A stretch of 64,000 nucleotides of DNA from Candidatus Borrarchaeum weybense (GTDB lineage Archaea; Asgardarchaeota; Sifarchaeia; Borrarchaeales; Borrarchaeaceae): positions 128,001 to 192,000 of the forward strand of contig JAHQJS010000004.1 of assembly GCA_019057385.1 (NCBI GenBank), written 5' to 3'. A model generated the notes under the pieces. That model saw nothing but the letters and a program-made list of their open reading frames with translations, was not told where the DNA came from and did no database searches. Shown piece after piece: positions 6,029 to 43,460 of the stretch (positions within the stretch are counted from its first letter, which is position 1; each line of letters starts with the position of its first letter). A program made the position numbers and the translations under genes.

Positions 6029-7177
6029 CTAATCTGCCCCGAATTCTGCAAACCATTCATCAAATCTTAGTAGTTCACCAGAAGAAACGCTTGGTCTAAT
6101 TTTTTCCATAGCTAAGGTGAAGTCTCCTTTTGCTACATGTCGAACTTGAACACTTGTATCTGTTAAAGCACCAGCAGCATCTAATTCACGGACTGGCATC
6201 ATTATTGCCTCTCGGCATATAAGAGCAATATCTGCACCAGAATAGCCTTCCGAAAGCATAGCTAACTCTTCAAAGTTGACCTCTGGTGCGTGTTCTACAC
6301 CTTTAGTATGTATTTTAAATATTGCTTGGCGTGCTTCCAAATCAGGTAGGGGAACATAAATCCTCTTTTCAAAACGTCTTCGAAAGGCAGCATCTATTTC
6401 CCACGGAATGTTAGTTGCACCTAAAACAACAATCCTATCTTCTGCCTTGCTAGTAACACCATCCATAGCCTGCATGAGTTGTGTTTTGACTCTCCGAAGT
6501 GCATCGTGTTCGCCAGCAGCCCGTTCTGTGGCAATAGAGTCAACCTCATCAATGAATACCAGCGAAGGCATTTTCTCTTTTGCTGCTTCAAACAACTCCC
6601 TCACTAGTTTTTCACTCTCTCCAAGCCACTTGCTTATTATCGCTGCTGCTGAAACATTGAAAAAGGTTGCATCACATTCAGTAGCTACAGCCTTAGCAAT
6701 TAATGTCTTTCCACATCCTGGAGGACCAAAAAGCATAATACCCTTCCACGGTTTTCTAGCTCCCTTAAATAGATCTGGACGGACCATAGGCAGAATAATA
6801 GCTTCTCGTAACGCAGATTTAGCCGCTACTAAACCCGCTACATCATCCCATGCAACATTAGGTTTTTCTCCAACGATCGTCTCTTCGATTGCAGCCTCAA
6901 TTTCGTCCTCTGATTTATCAGCCTCACTGTCTACACTGACTGGTTTCTTAGCAATTTCTTTTAACTCAGTTGCGCGTGCTAAGTATTCTCTTGCTTTTCT
7001 ATAATAGAGGTTCCTCATATCTTTGCTTTGCTCAAGACCAATAAGCTTCTGAAGAACGGTAGCTGCATTTAGATAGTTAGTAATTGCTTCCTTATATCTT
7101 CGTGCCTGATCTAGTTTAAGTGCTTTCTTTGCATAGTTTGATGCTTGTTGGAGCATAGCTTGACTCATATTCGTCAC
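6029..7177 (-). CDS. vps4: Vps4 AAA ATPase (MIT + AAA)
   Basis: N-terminal MIT domain, GPPGCGKT, FIDEVD, SKWLGESEK, RRRFEKRIY. Confidence 0.95.
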   Translation of the reverse strand: MTNMSQAMLQQASNYAKKALKLDQARRYKEAITNYLNAATVLQKLIGLEQSKDMRNLYYRKAREYLARATELKEIAKKPVSVDSEADKSEDEIEAAIEETIVGEKPNVAWDDVAGLVAAKSALREAIILPMVRPDLFKGARKPWKGIMLFGPPGCGKTLIAKAVATECDATFFNVSAAAIISKWLGESEKLVRELFEAAKEKMPSLVFIDEVDSIATERAAGEHDALRRVKTQLMQAMDGVTSKAEDRIVVLGATNIPWEIDAAFRRRFEKRIYVPLPDLEARQAIFKIHTKGVEHAPEVNFEELAMLSEGYSGADIALICREAIMMPVRELDAAGALTDTSVQVRHVAKGDFTLAMEKIRPSVSSGELLRFDEWFAEFGAD

Positions 7178-7335: not shown

Positions 7336-8541
7336 TCATTTTATCTGGTCATTGAGAAAAACTTTAATAAACTCCTCACCAGTCAACTGCCCAAAACTAC
7401 CTCTGCTACAGGAGTCTTCAGTAAAAGTTTTGATATCGTCAGGTTCTTCATTTTTATCATAAATTAAGAAAGGAACTGGCTCACAGGTATGAGTTCTTAC
7501 ACTTATTGGGTTATAATGATCAGTTAGAACAGTTAATTTAATGTTATCCTTTAATTTCTTTAAAATTCTTCCAACAACCCTTTTATCAAAGTCTTCTATG
7601 CATTTGATTTTTAAATTCAAGTCTCCTTGATGAGATGCTTCGTCGGGTGCCTCAATATGAACGTAAACCAGGTCATAGGTTTCCAAGGCTTTTAGACATT
7701 CCTCTGCTTTTCCTTCGTAATTAGTATCATATAAGCCAGTCGCGCCGTCTACATCTATTACATTAAACCCCGCATAAATGCCTAATCCACGGATTAAATC
7801 AACAGCAGAAATCACAGCTCCTTTAATACCAAATTTTTCTTGAAACGTTTTCATAACGGGCTTTCTCCCAGGTGCCCACGGCCAGATCATATTTGCTGCA
7901 TTTTTGCCAGCGTTTACCCTCCTGATATTTACGGGATGATTCTCCAATACAGATCTTGATTGGATGATAAGGGTATTGAGAAGTTCTGCAGTTTTTTCGC
8001 CGCTGATATCCTTAGCTTTTACAAGTACATCCTTGAAAGGTGTTCCAGGGACATCATGAGGAGGTGTACATATTAAATCAGGGCTGTATTTGTGTTTTAA
8101 GATGAGGATGTGCCTGTAACTAACTCCTGGAAAAAATCTAATTTCCTCATTGCCAAGTTCTTTGGCGACTGCTTCGATTAACTCGTGGCTTTCTTCGCTT
8201 GAGATATGTCCTCCAGAATGGTTTTTAATTGTGTCATTTTCAACACAGATGGTATTACACCTAAAAGCAATATCTCTTTCATCAACGTTGATTCCCATTG
8301 CTGCAGCTTCTAGAACACCTCTTCCTTGAAAATTGCTTATGTCGTACCCCAGTATGGACATATTTGCAAGGGCGCTTTCTGGATCGGCTCCCTCAGGTAT
8401 TGTCACTAATTTACCACATTTCCCCATAGAGGCTAGTTTATCTAGGTTAGGAGTTTTTGCAACTTCTAAAGGTGTTTTATGTCCTAATTCCTCGATTGGA
8501 TAATCCCCCATGCCATCTCCGACAATTATTATATATTTCAT
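7336..8541 (-). CDS. apgM: ApgM-family metalloenzyme (cofactor-independent phosphoglycerate mutase / proposed homoserine kinase)
   Basis: GDGMGD, GRGVLEAA, EAPDEASH and TDH...TH motifs; located beside ask-asd. Confidence 0.8.
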   Translation of the reverse strand: MKYIIIVGDGMGDYPIEELGHKTPLEVAKTPNLDKLASMGKCGKLVTIPEGADPESALANMSILGYDISNFQGRGVLEAAAMGINVDERDIAFRCNTICVENDTIKNHSGGHISSEESHELIEAVAKELGNEEIRFFPGVSYRHILILKHKYSPDLICTPPHDVPGTPFKDVLVKAKDISGEKTAELLNTLIIQSRSVLENHPVNIRRVNAGKNAANMIWPWAPGRKPVMKTFQEKFGIKGAVISAVDLIRGLGIYAGFNVIDVDGATGLYDTNYEGKAEECLKALETYDLVYVHIEAPDEASHQGDLNLKIKCIEDFDKRVVGRILKKLKDNIKLTVLTDHYNPISVRTHTCEPVPFLIYDKNEEPDDIKTFTEDSCSRGSFGQLTGEEFIKVFLNDQIK

Positions 8542-8727
8542 TATATCGCCACGATATAACTGCTTGAAAGGAGCTGTTATGTATTATTTGCATTTTCAGT
8601 TTAAAGCCCTTCATTTTCTAATCCATACAATTCTTAAATATTATTCTCCCGATGAGACTGATGAGAAAAGAATACAAATGATGCATAAGGTATTTAAGAA
8701 TCAATTTTTTAGATGATAGCGATCTAA

Positions 8728-9009
8728 ATGGCACAGATCAAAATAACTTATTTTTCAATGCTTAGAGAAGTGACTGGCAGGCATGAGGAGGGCTTAGAAG
8801 TCGGCAATACTGTTCGTTCTGCTCTTCAAAAACTATTTGAGAAATATGGCGAAAGGTTGCGTAAAATTATAATCAAGGAGCAAGATATTCCTCATGATTC
8901 AGTAATAATCGCTTTAAACGGCAAATCGATCAAATATCTAAAAGGGCTTGATACGATATTGAATGATGGGGACAAATTGACATTCTTCTTTGCAGCTGGA
9001 GGCGGGTGA
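8728..9009 (+). CDS. MoaD/ThiS/SAMP ubiquitin-like protein
   Basis: 93-aa beta-grasp pattern (YFSMLRE, LNG, GLDTILNDGD) with C-terminal GG. Confidence 0.9.
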   Translation: MAQIKITYFSMLREVTGRHEEGLEVGNTVRSALQKLFEKYGERLRKIIIKEQDIPHDSVIIALNGKSIKYLKGLDTILNDGDKLTFFFAAGGG

Positions 9010-9124
9010 AATAAAATGGAGTCGGTCGTATTAGAAAAGTAAAAGTCAGCTAAGCAATTGCTTTACAAAAAGTTTAAAAGACTAAATCTACCACCGGGTA
9101 CCATCAGTTTCTGGGGCAAAATAC

Positions 9125-9211
9125 ATGATGATCTTAATGCAATCCACTTTCCTTACTAGTTCTTATCATGCTTTCTATAACTTCTTCCCAGGAACAACGA
9201 CGACGTACTAA
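9125..9211 (+). CDS. Putative leader peptide of ask-asd (MMILMQSTFLTSSYHAFYNFFPGTTTTY)
   Basis: 28-codon uORF with a run ACA ACG ACG ACG before the stop, followed by a hairpin and GGAGG-U5. Confidence 0.6.
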   Translation: MMILMQSTFLTSSYHAFYNFFPGTTTTY

Positions 9212-9308
9212 CGCACCCATCTTGTTTTGATGTGGCGTGTTGGAGGTTTTTGATGTCTATCTCTTATCAAAAATTATATCTATCAAAAAATAGAGGCTGA
9301 GGCAAATT

Positions 9309-10724
9309 ATGCGTGTTGTTATGAAATTTGGTGGCACTTCAATTGGTAATGGATCGAATTTCGGTCATGTAGCAAAAATCATCAATTCTTATGCAGAAAG
9401 TCATGAGACAATCGTATTGGTTTCAGCAATGGCAGGAGTTACCGATCAGTTAATTGACTGCGCAGAACGATCTCAAAAAGACATTACAAAAGAAGTTCTC
9501 AGAGATTTTATTCAAGAATTACTGAAAAAGCATCTAAAAGCGGCAGAAGAGAGTATCGATGATGAGTTCATCTTAAAAGAGGTCGAACAAAAACTTACTG
9601 AAACTCTCGAAGAATTAGAAAGAGTATTGATTGGCATCTCTTTATTAAAAGAGCTGAGTTCACAGGCTAAAGATAAAGTTATGTCTTTTGGTGAACGACT
9701 ATCGACACCAATTCTTTGGGGTGCAGTCAAGAACTTGAATATTCCTGTTGTGTATTTAACGGGATATGAGGCTGGAATTGTCACAGATGAACGCTTTGGA
9801 AACGCTCGACCTATTTGGAATATCTCCATTGAAAAAATTCAGAAAACTCTTGTGCCTCTTCTTGAACAGCGATACACAATAATTATTTCTGGTTTTATTG
9901 CAGGGACTGAAGATGGTCTTATCACAACTTTGGGACGTGGTGGTACTGATTTTTCTGCAGCGATAATTGGGACTTCCATTGAGGCTGATGAAATAATTTT
10001 TTGGAAAGAAACAACTGGTGTTTTAACTACAGACCCAAATCTTGAGCCAAATGCACAGACTATACCTTCTTTGTCGTATGCCGAAGCGATGGAACTTGCC
10101 TACTTTGGGGCGAAGATTCTCCATCCTAAATGCCTTCAACCTGTTATGGAGAGAGAAAACATTCTGGTTCGGGTCAAAAATACGTTTAAACCTGATGCAG
10201 AAGGATCAATAATAGTCCCCGCTACGGAACAGGTTGAAAATGTCGCAAAGGCAGTAAGTGTACTATTTAATGCTGGAATAATAGAGGTTGGAGGTGCTGA
10301 GATGATCGGCACCCCTGGAATTGCAGCTCATATATTTGGTGCCTTCGAGAAAGCTGACGCAAATGTTATAATGATTTCTCAAAGTAGTAGCGAAGCAAAC
10401 ATCTCTGTCGTTGTAAATCGCTCCGATATAAGAAAGACAGAAAAAGTGTTGAAAGAGACATTTGCTTATACAAACTATATCAAATATGTTCGAAGCGAAG
10501 ACGACATATGCGTCATTGGAGTAGTGGGAGAAGGTTTAAAGGGTACTCCTGGAGTTGCAGCTAAGGTTTTCCAAGCGGTTGCACAAAAAGGGGTAAACGT
10601 CCGGATGATTGCACAAGGATCATCAGAATTAAATATCAGTTTTGTTGTCAAGGAAAAAGACGGAGGCTTAGCTGTTAGGGCACTTCACGAGGCTTTCGAA
10701 TTAGGTGAGAAAATAATTAAGTGA
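9309..10724 (+). CDS. lysC: Aspartate kinase with two ACT domains
   Basis: MKFGGTS, VSAMAG, TTLGRGGTD, ELAYFGAKILHP and MIAQGSSELNISF. Confidence 0.95.
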   Translation: MRVVMKFGGTSIGNGSNFGHVAKIINSYAESHETIVLVSAMAGVTDQLIDCAERSQKDITKEVLRDFIQELLKKHLKAAEESIDDEFILKEVEQKLTETLEELERVLIGISLLKELSSQAKDKVMSFGERLSTPILWGAVKNLNIPVVYLTGYEAGIVTDERFGNARPIWNISIEKIQKTLVPLLEQRYTIIISGFIAGTEDGLITTLGRGGTDFSAAIIGTSIEADEIIFWKETTGVLTTDPNLEPNAQTIPSLSYAEAMELAYFGAKILHPKCLQPVMERENILVRVKNTFKPDAEGSIIVPATEQVENVAKAVSVLFNAGIIEVGGAEMIGTPGIAAHIFGAFEKADANVIMISQSSSEANISVVVNRSDIRKTEKVLKETFAYTNYIKYVRSEDDICVIGVVGEGLKGTPGVAAKVFQAVAQKGVNVRMIAQGSSELNISFVVKEKDGGLAVRALHEAFELGEKIIK

Positions 10725-10737
10725 CAAGGGATGTAAA

Positions 10738-11826
10738 ATGGATAAAATTAAAATAGGCGTATTAGGTGCTACGGGCGTTGTTGGACAAAACTATGTTCGA
10801 TTATTAGCAAACCATCCATGGTTTGAAATAGTAGACGTTGCCGCGTCACCCAGATCCGCTGGAAAGTCATATTATGACGCAGTAAAAAAGAAATGGCAGA
10901 TGATAGTTCCCATACCAGAAAACGTCAAGAATTTAATTGTCAGGGACGTGCAAGATTTTGACTCATTAAACCCGGAGATATCATTCGTATTCTCCGCAAT
11001 GACCCTTCCAAAAGAAGATACCAGACAAATTGAATTTGCGTATGCACATAAAGGAATTCCGGTAGTCAGTAATAGTTCAGCAAATAGACGGATAGAAGAC
11101 GTGCCGATGTTAATACCCGAAATTAATTATAAACACGTAGATATCATCCCAATCCAACAAAAGAACCGAGGGATTCTAAACGGCGGCTTTGTTGCTGTCA
11201 AGCCGAATTGTTCTCTTCAAAGTTACATGACTCCTCTTTATGCACTGGAACACGCTGGATATAAGATAGACAAAGTAATTATTACCACCTTACAAGCGAC
11301 ATCTGGTGCGGGTTATCCGGGTGTGCCTTCATTAGATATGGTGGATAATATTGTTCCTTATATTTCCGGTGAAGAAACTAAATCGGAAGAAGAACCGATG
11401 AAGATTCTAGGGAAAATTGGTGAGAAGGGAATTGAGAATTATGAAGATATTCAAATAAGTGTAACTTGTACCAGAGTCCCAGTTGTTGATGGTCACACCG
11501 CTTCAGTCAATGTTAAGTTCAAGGATAAAATCCCGACTCGTGAAGAGATTTTAAAAACCTGGAAGGAATTCAAGAGCTTACCTCAAGAGTTAAATCTACC
11601 TTTTGCACCAAAACAGCCAATCATATACATTGACAATGAAGACCGGCCACAACCAAGGAAGGACAGAGATAATGATAAAGGAATGGCAGTAACTGTGGGC
11701 CGACTTCGAAAGGATAATGTATTTGACTGGAAATTTGTAAGCCTAAGTCATAATACCGTAAGAGGAGCCGCTGGTGGCGGAATCTTAAACGCTGAATTGC
11801 TCAAAGCTAAAGGCTATATAAGATAG
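10738..11826 (+). CDS. asd: Aspartate-semialdehyde dehydrogenase
   Basis: GATGVVGQ, KPNCS, SGAGYPG, RVPVVDGH and HNTVRGAAG. Confidence 0.95.
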   Translation: MDKIKIGVLGATGVVGQNYVRLLANHPWFEIVDVAASPRSAGKSYYDAVKKKWQMIVPIPENVKNLIVRDVQDFDSLNPEISFVFSAMTLPKEDTRQIEFAYAHKGIPVVSNSSANRRIEDVPMLIPEINYKHVDIIPIQQKNRGILNGGFVAVKPNCSLQSYMTPLYALEHAGYKIDKVIITTLQATSGAGYPGVPSLDMVDNIVPYISGEETKSEEEPMKILGKIGEKGIENYEDIQISVTCTRVPVVDGHTASVNVKFKDKIPTREEILKTWKEFKSLPQELNLPFAPKQPIIYIDNEDRPQPRKDRDNDKGMAVTVGRLRKDNVFDWKFVSLSHNTVRGAAGGGILNAELLKAKGYIR

Positions 11827-11943: not shown

Positions 11944-13107
11944 ATGGATCAAAACTCAAAAGACAATATAACGCCTGCTCTACAGTATGGAGGACAGGAT
12001 TACTTGTCAGAAACAAAAGACATGCCTGAAACTACTGAAGCTAGAATAATACGGCTTCTGTATGAATTAGAGGATAAAAGTTCAAGTTTAAGAGACGATG
12101 TTGCCTATTTGCTTCGCACTCTTGCAAAACGACGAAAAGAAATCAACATACTGATTAATGCGTTGAAACATGAAGATAGTATTATTCGAAAAAACGCCGC
12201 GTATATTCTTGGGAATCTTAGAGATCCTCTGACTGTTGAGCCACTTATTGAAGTATTAAATGATGAGGATGCGAATGTTCGAGGCGAGGTGGTTAGAACC
12301 TTAGGCGCAATTAGAGATGATCGCGCTATAGAGCCTTTAATCAAAACATTAAATGATGAATGTCGAGAGGTTCGGGGATGGGTGGCTTCAGCGTTAACTA
12401 AAATTGGTTTTTCAGCAGTAGACCCTCTTATTGCAGCATTGGATGAAGATAACAATAATATTCGAATGAATGCGACATGGGCACTTGGTCATATTGAAGA
12501 TAGTGCTGAAAAAGCTGTGGCACCGATCACAGGTGTACTTGATGATGAAAACGATGAGGTTCGTTTCTATGCAGCAGAAACATTAGGAATATACATGGAT
12601 ATAAGAACCGTATTAACCTTGCTTGATTCATTGAGAAACGATCTTGATGAAAGTGTTCGTTGGAAAATCATAGAGGCGTTAGGATTTATCAAAGATAAAA
12701 GAGCCGTCAAACCCTTAACTGAAGCGTTAGCAAATGAAGATGCAGGAATCCGTCGAAAAATTGTAGAAGTACTTAGTTTTTTAGGAGATAAAGGCGCAAT
12801 TGTGGAATTGCTCAATTCTTTAAAATATGATGAGGACCCGGGAGTTAGATGGCGTGCAGCAGAATCATTGATGCATCTTGATGAAGAACTTGCAATTGAT
12901 CCACTAATTGTAGCATTAAATGATGAGGACGCAGGAGTCGTAAGAAAAGTTGTGCAACTACTTGGACGAATTGGAGATCAACGCGCAATCCAGCCGCTTA
13001 CTGAGATGAAAAAAGAAGAACTCGATATAACTATTTTTAAAAGAGTCGAAGAATCCTTAGATAGCATTACTAAAAGAATTGGCTTAATATCTCAGGATAA
13101 TCTCTGA
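11944..13107 (+). CDS. HEAT/PBS-lyase repeat protein
   Basis: Repeated LNDED..VR..AA..LG.I.D.RA..PL units. Confidence 0.9.
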   Translation: MDQNSKDNITPALQYGGQDYLSETKDMPETTEARIIRLLYELEDKSSSLRDDVAYLLRTLAKRRKEINILINALKHEDSIIRKNAAYILGNLRDPLTVEPLIEVLNDEDANVRGEVVRTLGAIRDDRAIEPLIKTLNDECREVRGWVASALTKIGFSAVDPLIAALDEDNNNIRMNATWALGHIEDSAEKAVAPITGVLDDENDEVRFYAAETLGIYMDIRTVLTLLDSLRNDLDESVRWKIIEALGFIKDKRAVKPLTEALANEDAGIRRKIVEVLSFLGDKGAIVELLNSLKYDEDPGVRWRAAESLMHLDEELAIDPLIVALNDEDAGVVRKVVQLLGRIGDQRAIQPLTEMKKEELDITIFKRVEESLDSITKRIGLISQDNL

Positions 13108-36987: not shown

Positions 36988-38223
36988 TTAATTTGGCAAG
37001 TTAAGGGCTTCTTTTACTTGTTTAAGTGCGCTTTCTCTCTCGTTCCAGTTTACAAAAACCCGGATATTTGAGTTTATAGTGAGAAAACCATAGAGGTTCA
37101 TTTCCGTAAAGGGGTAACTTATCCGCTCAATAACACCCGGCGTAGTCTCAAGATCTCGTCCACTAATCGTTATAAGTGCTAAATCATTATGATTGGTTAT
37201 TGCCTTGCCAATTTTGGCTTCGATCATTTTTTTATGAAGTATCTCAACTAAAGAACCAGAATCTGTTTCAGGGATAGTTGCATAGAATATTACAGATCCA
37301 CTCTCTAGCGATGCACCGACAAGTTCGCATCCCATCTGTTGTATTTCATCGATAAATAAGTGGATATTTTTGGCTTTAACGACCTCTTTGCCGATTATAG
37401 TAATCATCTGTAGCCTTTGATTGAAAAGCGAGGCATGAAGGTCAGGGAATACCGCACCACTAATAATCGTTCCTCCCTCAGAGATATGTCCGTTAGAGAA
37501 TCCAACAATGCGGATATTCATGTCTTTTGGCTTAAATCTCAATGCTTTATTATGGATGACTTTTGCTCCTGCGGAAGTTAAGGACATGACCTCTTCAACA
37601 TCCAAATGTTCTATAAGCGCTGTTTCATGGATCTTCTTAGGGTCACCTGAAAAAACGCCCTCCACATCTTTGACTAAAATCACTTCAGAAGCGTTTAAAC
37701 AGTTACCAAGTATCACCGCAGTCGTATCCGCACCACCGCGTCCTAATGTCGTGATTTTATCTGTAATTCGGTCCTTGCCTAAAAATCCTGGAATAACAGG
37801 GACTTTATTTTCAGCAAGAAGTGGCAGGATGTGTTCTTGTATCGCCTGCTGCGTTTCCACCATATCTGGCTCAGCATCTCCATGTCTTGAATTCGTGTAG
37901 ATGGGCCACGAATCAGAAACAGGATCAATTAAAGCAGCATCCATATTTTTGCTAGTGAGTGAACTCATCATCAAACGTGCGCTTGTGCGTTCGCCCATAG
38001 CGAGAATATCATCCATCTCATGTAATTTAACTTTTCCGTTGGTGCAAGATTGTGCGAGCGAGAGGAGACTGTCCGTCATGCCGTTCAAAGCCGATACTAC
38101 GACTACAAGGCCTTTTACCTGAGCAAGTTCATTAAGAATGTGATCAGCAGCCTGTCCTATTGCTTCACCAGAGCCTAGACATGAACCTCCAAACTTTACC
38201 ACAACGATAGAATCTTTAACCAT
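36988..38223 (-). CDS. Second aspartate kinase, first gene of the aromatic operon
   Basis: VKFGGS, GERTSAR, TTLGRGGADTTA, KDVEGVFSGDP and GAKVIH. Confidence 0.92.
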   Translation of the reverse strand: MVKDSIVVVKFGGSCLGSGEAIGQAADHILNELAQVKGLVVVVSALNGMTDSLLSLAQSCTNGKVKLHEMDDILAMGERTSARLMMSSLTSKNMDAALIDPVSDSWPIYTNSRHGDAEPDMVETQQAIQEHILPLLAENKVPVIPGFLGKDRITDKITTLGRGGADTTAVILGNCLNASEVILVKDVEGVFSGDPKKIHETALIEHLDVEEVMSLTSAGAKVIHNKALRFKPKDMNIRIVGFSNGHISEGGTIISGAVFPDLHASLFNQRLQMITIIGKEVVKAKNIHLFIDEIQQMGCELVGASLESGSVIFYATIPETDSGSLVEILHKKMIEAKIGKAITNHNDLALITISGRDLETTPGVIERISYPFTEMNLYGFLTINSNIRVFVNWNERESALKQVKEALNLPN

Positions 38224-38253
38224 CAAAAAACCTCCAGAAAATCGCTTTATCCG

Positions 38254-38522: not shown

Positions 38523-39056
38523 ATGTTGGTTAGCTTTGGAGAGCTAATTATTCTGGTGGTGAGCTTTTTAAAAATCGAGTTAGAAGTTGAACTTACTGAC
38601 AAACCGGGAGAACTAGTAAGGTGTTTAGAACCCATATCTGCTCAAGGAGGAAATATTTTACAAGTTATTCACCATAGGTCATTAGATGTTGGAAAAGGAG
38701 TAGCACCTGTTTCAATTCATTTTGAAGTTGAAAACATCGATGTGATTGAAGATATTAAGAATGCCATCGAGCAGCAGGGTGTGCATGTAGTAAAATGGGA
38801 ACAAGAGTTTGTAGGGTTCAAGAAAATTGTGCTTCTTATCGGACATGTTTTTCAGAAGGATATCACAGATACAATTATTCGTCTTCTTGACAGTGGTGTT
38901 TTAGTGAATGAAGTTAATGCAAAAATCACGCAGAAAGAGGAAGTTTCAACCGTGAAGTTTTCGATTGTAGGTGATACCGAACAGAAGATTCAGGAAGCCA
39001 TGAAGCTTTGTAAAGAAATCTCAATGGAAAAAGGGCTATTCCTAATCAGAGGTTGA
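38523..39056 (+). CDS. ACT-domain protein (regulatory partner of homoserine dehydrogenase)
   Basis: LTDKPGEL...PIS..GGNI..VIH and LIGHVF..DITDTI; overlaps the hom start; true start probably a later GTG. Confidence 0.85.
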   Translation: MLVSFGELIILVVSFLKIELEVELTDKPGELVRCLEPISAQGGNILQVIHHRSLDVGKGVAPVSIHFEVENIDVIEDIKNAIEQQGVHVVKWEQEFVGFKKIVLLIGHVFQKDITDTIIRLLDSGVLVNEVNAKITQKEEVSTVKFSIVGDTEQKIQEAMKLCKEISMEKGLFLIRG

Positions 39057-40069
39057 AGTCAATGAATATTGCGTTAGTAGGTTTTGGAAGTGTTGGAAAA
39101 GGCGTTGCACAAGTATTTTCAAAGAAACAAGATCATCTAAGACAAAAATATGATCTTTCCTTTTCATTTAAGGGAATCTTCACAAGTAAAGGCGCATTCT
39201 TAGATCCAAATGGATTAGATTTGCAGAATATATTGAACACAAAAGATCTAACTGCTCACCCTTCATGGAAAAAAGATCTATCTTTCATGGAGTCTATCGA
39301 TGATCTTGATGTGGACCTTGTAATCGAAGTTACGCCTACAAATATCGAGGATGGAGAGCCAGGAAAGTCGCATATAATCTCTTCAATAAAGAAAGGATGT
39401 GATGTTGTCACAGCAAACAAAGGTCCTCTTGTTGTAGCTTTTAATGAACTTACACAACTAGCTCAACAAAATGATTCTATTTTAAGATATGAAGGAAGTG
39501 TAGCAGGCGGAATCCCCGTATTTAATTTAGTACGTAAGTCCTTGCAAGGTAATACCATTCATTCGCTAAAAGGAATTTTAAACGGTACATCTAACTTTAT
39601 TCTCACTCAGATGACCTATGAAAGAACGTCTTTTAAAAGCGCATTAAAAACGGCCCAGGAGTTAGGATATGCAGAGGCAGATCCCACATACGATGTCGAA
39701 GGTATCGATGCTGCAAGTAAAACCGTAATACTAGCGAATGGGCTATTTGGCATGAATAAAGGTATCGATGATGTTTACATTCAAGGTATCACTAAAGTGA
39801 CTCCAGAAGCTATTGAACTCGCTGGCAATGATAACTTTCTCATCAAACATATCGCATCCATTGAAGATGGACAAATTGAGGTTGCACCAAGACTCATTCC
39901 AGTTACTTCCACTCTTGCGGTGAATGGAACGCTCAATGTAATATCACTGCAAACAGATCTTGCAAAAGAAATAACAATTATTGGTAGAGGTGCGGGTGGT
40001 GAGGAAACCGCAAGTGCAATATTGAGCGACGTTATCAATATTCATTGTGCACGAACTACTCTATCCTAA
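39053..40069 (+). CDS. hom: Homoserine dehydrogenase
   Basis: GFGSVG, VTANKGP, GILNGTSNFIL, GYAEADPTYDVEG and GAGG.ETASA. Confidence 0.95.
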   Translation: MKSMNIALVGFGSVGKGVAQVFSKKQDHLRQKYDLSFSFKGIFTSKGAFLDPNGLDLQNILNTKDLTAHPSWKKDLSFMESIDDLDVDLVIEVTPTNIEDGEPGKSHIISSIKKGCDVVTANKGPLVVAFNELTQLAQQNDSILRYEGSVAGGIPVFNLVRKSLQGNTIHSLKGILNGTSNFILTQMTYERTSFKSALKTAQELGYAEADPTYDVEGIDAASKTVILANGLFGMNKGIDDVYIQGITKVTPEAIELAGNDNFLIKHIASIEDGQIEVAPRLIPVTSTLAVNGTLNVISLQTDLAKEITIIGRGAGGEETASAILSDVINIHCARTTLS

Positions 40070-40291: not shown

Positions 40292-41830
40292 CTAAAAGAG
40301 GTCTTCCTCGCTTGTTCTCTTCCTCTTAAGACCTTTCGCCGCTCTTGCGCTTGGAGCCGCAGCCTTTTCAGCTATTTCAGCTTCTTCTTCATCAATCTCA
40401 GCAGCTTGATCCTCTAAGACATTTAACGCTTCTTCTTGGAATTGAATACCATCTTGTTTCGCAAGTGTTTCTTTAAGTTCCTTCAATCTTTCTTTAGCTT
40501 CTTCCGTTTTCCCTTCGTAATAACTCCCACCTGCTGCTTGCACCACATTTGTAGTAACAACTCTTGCATCATATGCTTTATTAAATTCAACTTCTTCTTC
40601 AACCACTGCTGAACGTGAAGTCAATACTCGCAATCTTTTGTTTCCTTCTGAATCAATATATGTGACCTGAGCTTGTATAGGAACTTCTTTTTTCTTGACC
40701 TCTTCTTCTGCTGTCTCTAGTTTCTCTAGTTCAAAGAAGACTTCTCTGTCTTCAGTAACAGCACCAACTTTCATAGGTGCAGGTGTAGTAAATGTTGTAT
40801 CTGTTACTACTCTTATGTTCACATCTCGACCTAGATATTCCCTCTTTCTTAATTGTTCAAATGCCTTTTGTACCTCAGCCATCGTAACGTAAAATATGTC
40901 TCCTCCAGTTTCGTCTGCTAATCTACCGAGTACGTCCAAAGCCAGTCTGCTTGAATCGTCTTCTGCCGCAATTCCCACAACTTCGCAGTTGACCTGTTTA
41001 TCAATACATTTTTTTGCCATCTCTTTGTAGAACTTCTTTCCAGTAGCTGAACTTTCTAAATTGCCTAATCCCTCATTAGCTAGACCATCAGTAAGCAAAA
41101 TCAATCTTCCACCACCATCAACCCGCCCTAGAAGAGTTATTCCTCCAAGGAGCGCTGGACCCAATGAAGTATAATTTAAGGGTCTAAGTTGAGAAATCGT
41201 ACTTATCCATTTCTCGGCAGTGTCAGATATGGGTGAAAAATCGAGTTTTGTTTTAGTAAACGCTTTTTCTATACCATTTATTGAATGCAGTACATCTCCT
41301 TCTAGTTCAAGTACTTTTTCACCATTTGCATTAAAGAGAAACACTTCTGTGCTAAAAGCTATTAAAGTAAAACGTGAATGTGGAGCATTCATCTTAAGAT
41401 CTTTTAGCGATTGAGTTAAAGAATGCTTAACCGCCTCTAGTTTTCCATCATCCATTGAGCCAGAGACATCTATAACGGCGACAATATATTCCTTTGTTCC
41501 AGTTCCGATTTTGGTTTCTACTGTGATATCATCTTCTGGTTTCTTTTCAATGATCCATTCAATATCATCACCAATATCTTCTGGTAATGTAACATCAGCG
41601 GCGATAATATTCAGGGTTCCGCAAAATTCGCAATTCCAACTGCGACCTAATTTGGTCGTCTCAATTAAACTGGCTTTAGTCAAGATACCTCCGCAACTTG
41701 TACAGACAACAGGAATCCCTTCTATAACCTTCTCTTTTTTCTTTAAACTATGAAAGTCAAGCGATGTTACGTAGGGTAGTTTTGTATCTTTGCCTTTCTT
41801 CAGAACATTGCCAAAGCTTTTTTTAAACAA
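40292..41830 (-). CDS. Sec23/Sec24-like Zn-finger + vWA protein
   Basis: CTSCGG...WNCEFCGTLN, MIDAS DVSGSM, TSLGPAL and LLTDGLANEG; TTG 41830 follows GAGGT, whereas the ORF track starts at 41965. Confidence 0.75.
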   Translation of the reverse strand: MFKKSFGNVLKKGKDTKLPYVTSLDFHSLKKKEKVIEGIPVVCTSCGGILTKASLIETTKLGRSWNCEFCGTLNIIAADVTLPEDIGDDIEWIIEKKPEDDITVETKIGTGTKEYIVAVIDVSGSMDDGKLEAVKHSLTQSLKDLKMNAPHSRFTLIAFSTEVFLFNANGEKVLELEGDVLHSINGIEKAFTKTKLDFSPISDTAEKWISTISQLRPLNYTSLGPALLGGITLLGRVDGGGRLILLTDGLANEGLGNLESSATGKKFYKEMAKKCIDKQVNCEVVGIAAEDDSSRLALDVLGRLADETGGDIFYVTMAEVQKAFEQLRKREYLGRDVNIRVVTDTTFTTPAPMKVGAVTEDREVFFELEKLETAEEEVKKKEVPIQAQVTYIDSEGNKRLRVLTSRSAVVEEEVEFNKAYDARVVTTNVVQAAGGSYYEGKTEEAKERLKELKETLAKQDGIQFQEEALNVLEDQAAEIDEEEAEIAEKAAAPSARAAKGLKRKRTSEEDLF

Positions 41831-42107
41831 TCTGTTTACCTCTTTTTGTTTCCAGTATTTTAATCCTCGGTTAAACAAGTTGTTAAATGTTACGTAATTG
41901 AAGAGTGCCTCTAAAAAACATATTGAAGTCGCTCTTTTAGCTCGTTGATGATCTTTCTCTTTCACGTTCTATATCTTGCAAAAAACTCTTATGTAAACGT
42001 GCACGAAACATTCAAAAATCGAAATGTTAATTTCGAGATGATTAAGATCGATCATTCAGAGATTCGTTAAAAATACATAACTAAACAGACTCTGATAGTG
42101 TATCAAA

Positions 42108-43460
42108 ATGATAATGCTTCATTCTACTAACCTTAATGCTCCGCAGGTGGATTTCAAAGAGGCAATCCTCACAGGACAAGCCCCGGATAGAGGATTATAT
42201 ATGCTAAATGAAATTCCCAGGCTAGACGATGCAGAAATGTTCTCTTTCAGCGATTTAGAATTAACACAAATTGCTTATAAGGTCCTTTCAAGAATTATTG
42301 GAGATTTGATCCCGAAAGAGCAGCTGGAAAGCATTATAAACAGTGCCTTAAATTTTGAAATTCCCATACATTATGTTAGCAATCACGATTACATGATGTA
42401 TATAGACCAAGGACCGACATGTAGTTTCAAAGATGTTGGAGCTCGTATGCTCGCAAGATTAATGGAATACTTTCTTGAAGTTGAAAATAAGAATGTTATA
42501 ATAATCACAGCAACCAGTGGGGATACAGGAGGGGCGGTTGCTCAAGCTTTTTACGAAATGAACCGAATTCAGGTCGTTGTACTGTACCCAAAGAATGAAG
42601 TAAGTAACTTGCAAAGAAAACAAATGACTACTTTAGGAAAGAATGTTACTGCAATAGGAATCAATGGGAAGTTTGACGATTGTCAGAAATTTGCAAAAAA
42701 TGCATTTGCTGATAAGGATCTAGATCTTAATTTAACTTCAGCAAATTCAATTAATTTTGGACGACTTTTGCCACAAACTCTCTATTATTTTTTGGCCTAC
42801 TCACGTGTAGCAGAAGACTTAGGTGAAAAAGTAATTTTCTCTGTGCCTTCAGGAAATTTTGGAAATTTACTAGGAGGGTTAATTGCTTTTAGGATGGGAT
42901 TACCCGTTAAGAAATTTATTGCTGCCGTGAATGAAAATGACGAATTTCCTCGCTATGTAAACAGCGGAACCTATCAAAAGGTAGAGCCCTCAAAAAACTG
43001 TCTCTCTAGTGCAATGAATGTGGGCCATCCATCAAATCTTGCACGTCTCATTGAAATGTATGGAGGTCAGATTGACGAGATAGGAATAGTTCACAAAGAT
43101 CCAGATCTTGAGAAGATTCGTGATGATATTTATACGATCTCCATAACTGATGAACTAACTAAACAAACAATTAAAGGTTTTTATGAATCATATAGTAAGA
43201 TCATTGAACCCCATGGTGCTGTTGGCTGGGCGGGTCTTCAAGCATATAGAACAGATACTCCAAAAGATAAAAATGTCAAATCAATCTCAATAGAGACTGC
43301 AGATCCAGCTAAATTCCCAGAAGCAATTGTATCATTGATAAATATAACCCCAAAATTACCTCAATGCTTAGAAATAATTAATCAAAAGGAAGAGTTCCCC
43401 AATCCCGTAGAAATCAATACATATGAAGATTTCAAAAAATATCTGCAATCAAATTATTAA
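42108..43460 (+). CDS. thrC: Threonine synthase
   Basis: GPTCSFKD, ATSGDTG, SANSINFGR, PSGNFGN and ETADPAKF. Confidence 0.95.
   Translation: MIMLHSTNLNAPQVDFKEAILTGQAPDRGLYMLNEIPRLDDAEMFSFSDLELTQIAYKVLSRIIGDLIPKEQLESIINSALNFEIPIHYVSNHDYMMYIDQGPTCSFKDVGARMLARLMEYFLEVENKNVIIITATSGDTGGAVAQAFYEMNRIQVVVLYPKNEVSNLQRKQMTTLGKNVTAIGINGKFDDCQKFAKNAFADKDLDLNLTSANSINFGRLLPQTLYYFLAYSRVAEDLGEKVIFSVPSGNFGNLLGGLIAFRMGLPVKKFIAAVNENDEFPRYVNSGTYQKVEPSKNCLSSAMNVGHPSNLARLIEMYGGQIDEIGIVHKDPDLEKIRDDIYTISITDELTKQTIKGFYESYSKIIEPHGAVGWAGLQAYRTDTPKDKNVKSISIETADPAKFPEAIVSLINITPKLPQCLEIINQKEEFPNPVEINTYEDFKKYLQSNY

Follow-up and report, generated by a model that had tools for sequence, protein, structure and literature searches.

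The window analysed here is a stretch of 64,000 nt from the genome of Ca. Borrarchaeum weybense, an Asgard archaeon. It contains ask (9309-10724, +), which codes for an aspartate kinase (NF004938, 590.9 bits), followed by asd (10738-11826, +; NF006416, 468.4 bits); both genes were assigned with Pfam and NCBIfam models. The 5′ neighbour of ask is a ThiS/MoaD-family gene (8728-9009), and the intergenic region between the two (9010-9308) carries all elements of the leader described in this study. ask and asd are presumed to be the genes controlled by this leader. A HEAT-repeat protein gene adjoins asd (11944-13107, +) and was listed with the eukaryote-signature-type genes of the window, a Vps4-like gene (MIT, AAA and Vps4_C; 6029-7177, −) and a Sec23/24-like gene (trunk and beta-sandwich; 40292-41965, −).

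The leader is preceded by a putative BRE/TATA-like promoter box (ACAAAAAGTTTAAAAG, 9065-9080, +), recognised by its sequence, with the TATA-like part starting 52 nt 5′ of the ATG of a short reading frame, uORF1 (9125-9211, +). uORF1 comprises 28 codons and a stop codon, and its peptide contains six Thr (four of them consecutive), four Phe and three Tyr residues and begins with MMILM. The 3′ end encodes Pro-Gly-Thr-Thr-Thr-Thr-Tyr-stop, with the codons ACA-ACG-ACG-ACG-TAC-TAA for the last six positions; the four Thr codons (9194-9205, +) represent the putative regulatory run. A Shine-Dalgarno-like GGGG (9113-9116, +) is part of S1 (GUUUCUGGGG, 9107-9116, +), the 5′ strand of a helix, P1, that appeared in single-sequence as well as in alignment folds. 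The 3′ strand of P1, S2 (CCCAGGAAC, 9187-9195, +), covers the Pro-Gly codons and extends into the first Thr codon, and it adjoins a pyrimidine-rich UUCUUCC. A hairpin (9208-9243, +) contains the stop codon; it consists of a 5′ arm (9208-9221, with the UAA at 9209-9211), a loop (9222-9228) and a 3′ arm (9229-9243). GGAGG (9242-9246) followed by T5 (9247-9251, +) can be read as a U-tract or as Shine-Dalgarno sequence and spacer of a second, doubtful reading frame, uORF2 (15 codons, 9253-9300, +, ATG at 9253). The TGA of uORF2 (9298-9300) is located inside the Shine-Dalgarno region of ask (AGAGGCTGAGG, 9292-9302, +). Counted from T5 to the start of ask, the module ends 58 nt 5′ of ask-asd. An earlier sequence-only reading of this DNA had proposed a uORF with four consecutive Thr codons before ask-asd, and the translation of 9125-9211 agrees exactly with this description.

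Positions 9256-9291, between the U-tract and the Shine-Dalgarno region of ask, are as conserved as the leader in the ask-linked copies and carry repeated TATC-A5 motifs as well as a TATA-like TTATAT (9276-9281). TTATAT is found 33-34 nt 5′ of the ask ATG, also in the divergent copy L215, and ask might therefore possess its own promoter. The whole stretch may be a second promoter or an operator. At the other side of the module, an inverted repeat (AAGCAATTGCTT, 9051-9064) is located just 5′ of the TATA-like box. It could terminate transcription of the ThiS-like gene or act as an operator. L217 has a different inverted repeat (TAGCA-N5-TGCTA) at this position, and none is present in G002 or G003.

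An Rfam cmscan of positions 8500-9800 (E up to 10) yielded only four weak snoRNA-like chance hits and no Thr_leader (RF00506), and no tRNA is present in the leader region. The sequence AUGAUGA at 9125-9131 resembles the C box (RUGAUGA) of archaeal C/D box sRNAs. This assignment was rejected, since the only Rfam hit was SNORD81 with 17.9 bits (gathering score 50, E 5.1), most relatives carry AUGAUCC, and a D box (CUGA) is missing from the expected place. A metabolite riboswitch was rejected as well, because nearly all positions inside P1 are variable and no Rfam family matches there.

To the rarity of the codon run we can attach numbers. At least four consecutive Thr codons occur in only 22 of the 41,608 ATG-started sORFs of 15-45 codons in the whole genome, so that a chance placement of such an sORF directly before a Thr-pathway operon is unlikely (rough estimate of the probability below 0.01). 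ACG is the rarest Thr codon of the genome (14%). A genome-wide scan for sORFs with amino-acid runs upstream of long ORFs returned 131 candidates, and none of the 10 downstream genes that were checked is linked to amino-acid synthesis. Since run-bearing sORFs upstream of long ORFs are common, the single sequence does not carry weight here, but the comparative data do. A frame with 12 Thr codons at contig C4:1118294 (L245) turned out to be the wrong frame of an acidic small protein.

The comparison is based on a covariance model, with which we collected 15 complete leader copies (14 distinct sequences) as well as two that are truncated. All relatives are MAGs of one Asgard genus, labelled Borrarchaeota/Promethearchaeota. 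The leader is present in all four genomes of the genus, with two copies in one of them, and further copies stem from contigs coding for aspartate kinases that are 76-93% identical; the nearest aspartate kinases outside the genus are 47-50% identical. Identity to the window was 61-92% for the leader and 51-84% for the third codon positions of ask, with the higher value for the leader in every pair (e.g., 79% versus 51% for G002 and 82% versus 51% for L213). The leader is therefore under selection.

The promoter-like box is found at a distance of 52-58 nt in 13 of the 15 copies, among them one of the copies linked to a homoserine kinase gene (see below). In the other two a repeat element is inserted at this place. 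This GC-rich repeat of about 120-170 nt occurs in two size classes and separates the TATA-like box from the leader in one ask-linked copy (L215, 255-500, +) and in one homoserine-kinase-linked copy (L213, about 1550-1800, −). At least 40 matches to it were counted in G000, the genome of the window (e.g., contig C4:1163959-1164123), and likewise in G004, and 11-17 in the partial MAGs. The repeat contains a conserved TTTATATA and has no Rfam match. The GC-rich block before the L215 leader was considered as a riboswitch, which is ruled out by its identity with a repeat of at least 40 copies per genome. A pattern scan of metagenomes for the leader core did not find the leader at any of at least 120 loci, among the matches listed, which were chance matches and copies of an unrelated repeat. 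Dozens of contigs from four related metagenome samples (loci L093-L212, e.g., L093 2741-2830) carry this repeat of about 85 nt (AACAATATTACGTACGCAAGCAGGAAC...GTGATGTGGCGTATTCCTCCGCCCAATAGCAGCCCG).

The reading frame of uORF1 is open over 28-30 codons in all 14 distinct copies, and only two indels, each of 3 nt, fall within it. L213 has lost the first ATG, and as the next in-frame codon is also ATG, the start is shifted by just one codon. Parsimony on the tree gave 122 substitutions; when these were placed randomly, all copies remained free of stop codons in 5.4% of the simulations. All copies end with Pro-Gly-(Thr/Met/Ser)4-5-Tyr-stop, the run of the relatives consisting of 4-5 Thr codons with Met or Ser at single positions. 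For the run, 13 changes were inferred: eight third-position changes, each synonymous within ACN, four from ACG to ATG and one from ACG to TCG. The sequence-only reading had proposed to compare Asgard ask leaders for a conserved Thr run, whose absence or loss of frame in orthologues would refute it; within this genus the run is present and in frame in 14 of 14 distinct copies, with synonymous changes at third positions. The excess of third-position changes gives a binomial estimate of about 0.03 and frame maintenance a p value of about 0.05, both to be read with the copies being kin from one genus and hence not independent. As (ACG)n is a triplet repeat, indels of 3 nt in the run are expected from slippage anyway. 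Statistical support for coding of uORF1 is thus modest.

Evolution of the peptide body is close to neutral, with 18, 21 and 20 of 28 columns variable for the three codon positions and pN/pS of about 0.6-1. A sequence that is not conserved outside the last eight residues fits a leader peptide and not a functional micro-protein. These data also bear on the amino acids that might be sensed. The proposal that the peptide composition mirrors further end products is not supported for the aromatic amino acids and Ile. Phe and Tyr codons never form runs but are dispersed over a U-rich stretch whose sequence is free to change. The case of Met is divided. The N-terminal MMILM, which the proposal had cited, is not conserved (MIL.., MIR.. 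or MSP.. in relatives), but ATG is found inside the run in four copies; parsimony suggests about four separate ACG to ATG changes, and L216 has an ATG in an extra codon of its run. Thr and Met both derive from homoserine. Judged from the codons of the run, Met is a plausible second sensed amino acid.

The Shine-Dalgarno-like GGGG begins 12 nt before the ATG in 13 of the 15 copies. GGGG is enriched at −15 to −6 before genes of the Ca. Borrarchaeum weybense genome, and the GGGG of the leader falls into that zone. GAGG or GGAGG at −15 to −6 is the norm before genes of this genome, as is initiation led by a Shine-Dalgarno sequence, and AGAGG in the Shine-Dalgarno region of ask is kept in the 13 ask-linked copies that could be read through to the ask start. 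Frame, codon run and Shine-Dalgarno signals, each modest alone, together favour the view that uORF1 is translated.

Folding of the 66-nt stretch 9195-9260 gave −20.8 kcal/mol with z = −3.07, and 2 of 200 dinucleotide shuffles were as stable. The stem begins at C9208, the third base of the Tyr codon, includes the stop codon and ends at G9243; of GGAGG, only the first two G belong to it. This bears out the earlier description of a hairpin that starts at the stop codon and overlaps GGAGG. Over the 14 distinct copies 95.9% of the hairpin positions are paired, compared to 43-53% in slid controls. Three pairs are changed on both sides (A-U/G-C once, C-G/U-A twice), and the five cells with changes on both sides compare with 1.9 in shuffles, a value reached by 7 of 500 shuffles. 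These compensatory changes indicate constraint at the RNA level. Unlike the 5′ arm, the 3′ arm hardly varies, a hint that it may have a second role. Helix P1, in which S1 pairs with S2 just before the Thr codons, was obtained in a 221-nt fold and in the alignment fold. Its pairing reaches 96.8% across the 14 distinct copies, and all changes affect just one side of a pair. An outer helix, P0 (CAUCA/UGAUG), was dismissed, as it shows no compensatory changes and does not covary. For an antiterminator, we folded the 15 copies without the 3′ arm and with the footprint of a stalled ribosome, and no conserved alternative partner appeared.

A second copy of the leader connects the module to another step of the pathway. 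An ApgM-family gene at 7336-8541 (−) is a proposed homoserine kinase gene: it reaches 540.2 bits with TIGR02535 (cut-off 446.3), the other two of the three ApgM paralogues do not pass this model, and no canonical thrB above cut-off is present in the genome. In Ca. Borrarchaeum weybense this gene has no leader. In two relatives its orthologue is preceded by a second leader copy, at 160-324 (−) in G002 (L006/L014) and at 1382-1546 (−) in L213. The duplicated module comprises ORF, hairpin and U-tract; the promoter box is kept in G002, and in L213 the repeat element is inserted at this place. The homoserine-kinase-linked copies do not have the 50-nt stretch that lies between U-tract and ask. In the tree they group with the ask-linked copy of G002, which suggests that the leader was duplicated onto a second gene of the same Thr pathway. 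The link to Thr synthesis that had been drawn from ask-asd is thereby strengthened.

Other genes of the pathway lack the module. In the window hom (39053-40069) and thrC (42108-43460) are without such a leader, which we count against a role in Thr sensing. A covariance-model search of the own genome recovered only the one copy, and no Thr-run leader was seen in the region upstream of thrS in this genome. Upstream of ask in 78 other archaeal and bacterial lineages, Thr-run sORFs were not above background (5 on the gene strand versus 1 on the opposite strand), and none was convincing. A second amino-acid-kinase-family gene of the window (412 aa, 36988-38226, −) is probably another aspartate kinase; it is divergent from an ACT-domain gene (38523-39056, +) that forms an operon with hom. 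Its start region (CTGGAGGTTTTTTGATG) matches positions 9240-9255 of the leader, with an identical 15-nt GGAGG-T6-G-ATG at its start (38226, −). The upstream regions of ask and of this gene have nothing in common beyond these 15 nt, and a leader similarity was therefore rejected. GGAGG followed by a T-run occurs 62 times in the genome, 12 of them before long ORFs, and hence does not mark start regions exclusively.

The anatomy of the module, its conservation, the codon-level pattern of the run, the covariation of the hairpin and the link to two Thr-pathway transcription units are direct observations from the aligned copies. We consider it probable (roughly 0.6) that the leader is a ribosome-stalling sensor for Thr, and probably Met, that acts in cis before ask-asd. 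Translation of uORF1, stalling, direction of control and output step are what we infer from the sequence features, as follows. A transcript from the conserved TATA-like box would carry GGGG and the ORF of 28-30 codons, of which only three things should matter: the frame, the start, and the last codons, Pro-Gly-(Thr/Met)4-5-Tyr-stop. With charged tRNA-Thr or tRNA-Met in short supply, a ribosome would wait on the codon run, where it would cover S2 and, in the hairpin, the 8 outermost nt of the 5′ arm, so that neither P1 nor the hairpin could form. If the footprint extends about 15 nt 3′ of the P site, as in bacteria, a ribosome whose A site is at the last Thr codon would shield the RNA up to about position 9215, and a ribosome at the stop codon would shield the whole arm. 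With good supply the ribosome would reach the UAA and leave, and P1 and hairpin would fold. Because the footprint would cover both S2 and the 5′ arm, these structures could form only after departure of the ribosome, that is, by relief of direct occlusion. The folded hairpin would then switch off ask-asd. In some relatives it would act likewise on the homoserine kinase gene.

The conserved structures would also fit a 5′ leader RNA made of P1 and hairpin that is the target of a trans-acting factor such as a protein, the ORF being incidental. In that case the factor would bind to the ACN repeats, which are conserved and single-stranded and lie between P1 and hairpin. Conservation of P1 and hairpin, covariation of the latter, conservation of 3′ arm and run at the nucleotide level and the modest statistical support for coding are all in agreement with such an RNA. 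We nevertheless regard it as unlikely: about 70 nt inside P1 vary freely and yet never gain a stop codon or a frameshift, variation in the run is periodic (3 nt) and falls on third codon positions, start codon and Shine-Dalgarno-like site are kept at fixed spacing, and no Rfam family matches.

The promoter-like box before the leader and the hairpin and U-tract after the ORF could likewise delimit an independent small gene for a micro-protein or small RNA, with its own promoter and terminator, while ask would be transcribed from TTATAT at 9276-9281, which is present also in L215. This possibility appears quite improbable to us. The lack of peptide conservation outside the last eight residues speaks against a micro-protein, the module was co-opted before a second gene of the same pathway, and the conserved Shine-Dalgarno region of ask would fall upstream of a transcript started from TTATAT, although the use of such sites is the norm in this genome. 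That the region acts at the DNA level, through transcription-factor operators, or is conserved without any regulatory role, with ORF, run and hairpin as by-products, could be argued from the 50 nt between U-tract and ask with their TATC-A5 motifs and leader-like conservation, but is very doubtful given the compensatory hairpin changes, the open frame with its codon-level run pattern, and the homoserine-kinase-linked copies, which retain the leader and not the 50-nt stretch.

If the leader is a ribosome-stalling sensor, three routes from the hairpin to expression of the downstream genes can be envisaged, and there is no clear winner between termination and translational control. The hairpin could favour release of the transcript at the U-tract directly 3′ of it (attenuation). 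UUGGAGG followed by U4-6 is present in all copies, with U5-6 in most, a doubled tract in three and U4 in L215. A scan for bacterial-type terminators finds none, because the U-run begins 3 nt after the stem. Termination by archaeal RNA polymerases takes place at oligo-U and is not known to require a hairpin, and an effect of hairpin melting on termination is therefore not evident. Alternatively, or in addition, the hairpin could bury the first G's of the GGAGG of uORF2, with a relay through the stop codon inside the ribosome-binding site of ask. uORF2 is open in 10 ask-linked copies. It has lost its ATG in L214, and neither L215 nor the homoserine-kinase-linked copies contain it. It is thus missing in 4 of 14 copies overall, shows no coding signature, and was rejected as an essential part because it is not universal among the copies.

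A third route would be long-range masking, with the run covering the start of ask or, in the linked copies, of the homoserine kinase gene. Such pairing is seen in 10 of 15 minimum-energy folds, and in 11 of 15 copies the duplex ranks within the top 1-9% when set against 1,683 background start regions. Pyrimidine-rich codons immediately before the run pair with the start region as well or better, and the strongest predicted duplexes with the ribosome-binding region of ask involve the pyrimidine-rich stretch UUCUUCC. Since other leader windows pair at least equally well, pairing of the run is suggestive but not specific, and we did not retain it as the mechanism.

Attenuation by leader peptides is a bacterial mechanism that depends on coupled transcription and translation. 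Like thrL (Rfam RF00506), trpL, hisL, leuL and pheL, the ask leader has a short ORF rich in codons for an end product upstream of a biosynthetic operon, and a GC-rich hairpin and U-run between leader ORF and first structural gene. thrL is multivalent for Thr and Ile, and the sequence of its leader peptide is itself unimportant; the corresponding pair in the ask leader would be Thr and Met. The host is an archaeon, no Rfam family matches, and there is no 2:3 antiterminator. The run is located at the very C-terminus and abuts the stop-containing hairpin, so that a stalled ribosome would occlude it directly, the U-run is separated from the stem by 3 nt and would also serve as spacer of a ribosome-binding site, and the leader's own Shine-Dalgarno-like site is paired, in P1, with the codons just before the run. 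The earlier comparison with thrL of bacteria is consequently valid only as an analogy: a conserved antiterminator was not found, the scan for bacterial-type terminators was negative and a Thr_leader match is missing.

Among systems without a classical terminator/antiterminator pair, the closest mechanistic parallel is provided by the leaderless polycysteine sORFs of mycobacteria, translational attenuators driven by a stalled ribosome (bioRxiv 10.1101/834739). These, as well as leaders of the ermC type, share with the ask leader the codon run at the 3′ end (for an end product) and the potential to pair with the start of the next gene. In the ask leader downstream pairing is neither specific nor universal, and it differs from the polycysteine sORFs also by having a 5′ UTR and a Shine-Dalgarno-like site instead of being leaderless, by the amino acid and by the domain of life. 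A full-text literature search retrieved no report of leader-peptide or ribosome-mediated attenuation in Archaea. As far as can be judged from sequence comparison, our data support the view that the ask leader resembles a leader-peptide attenuator in its predicted working, is not a member of the thrL family, and represents a kind that, by this search, is unreported in Archaea.

Two further sORFs with C-terminal runs, both present in the genome of the window (G000), may be of the same type, and the first of them we count in favour of the sensor reading. A candidate Arg leader of 31 codons that ends with (CGA)7-TGA (G000 contig C7:791280-791375, −; L240 2281-2376, −) has a GAGGTGG Shine-Dalgarno site and is located about 200 nt upstream of a gene for a LysX/ArgX ligase (TIGR02144, 322.5 bits); it is kept in G004 with (CGA)5. 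Its last Arg codons and stop codon can pair with AUCGUCGU about 25 nt downstream. It is similar to the ask leader in size, in the position of the run and in having a pathway gene as neighbour, but has no sequence similarity to it. An sORF of 28 codons ends in nine Ser codons (G000 contig C5:143216-143302, −; L244 1717-1803, −), with a counterpart in G002 (L242 47-133, −). The codons are a mixture of TCG, TCA and TCC in G000 and eight TCG followed by TGC (Cys) in G002, and third-position changes in the run are synonymous. The ORF is followed by a T7 run and, at a distance of 63 nt, by the start of a ComB-family (2-phosphosulfolactate phosphatase-like) gene.

By their predicted features the Arg-run and Ser-run sORFs fit a common design with a C-terminal run and about 28-31 codons. 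This Asgard genus may use a family of ribosome-stalling leaders (for Thr/Met, Arg and perhaps Ser) as a general means to sense amino acids, an idea to which we give somewhat less than even odds. The shared design would comprise 28-31 codons, a C-terminal run of rare codons, a stop codon inside a hairpin and no bacterial-type antiterminator.

If the Thr/Met leader works as proposed, archaea too would read amino-acid supply through the ribosome. The ask leader provides a concrete RNA with which the response of archaeal polymerase and ribosome to a nascent hairpin can be addressed, and its non-bacterial design makes coupling-dependent regulation in archaea directly testable with reporters. We know of no transcription factor for this pathway in uncultured Asgard genomes, and the leader would aid the annotation of regulation in these genomes. 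Should the leader family exist, it would be the first attenuation-like mechanism described in Archaea, and this in the closest prokaryotic relatives of eukaryotes.
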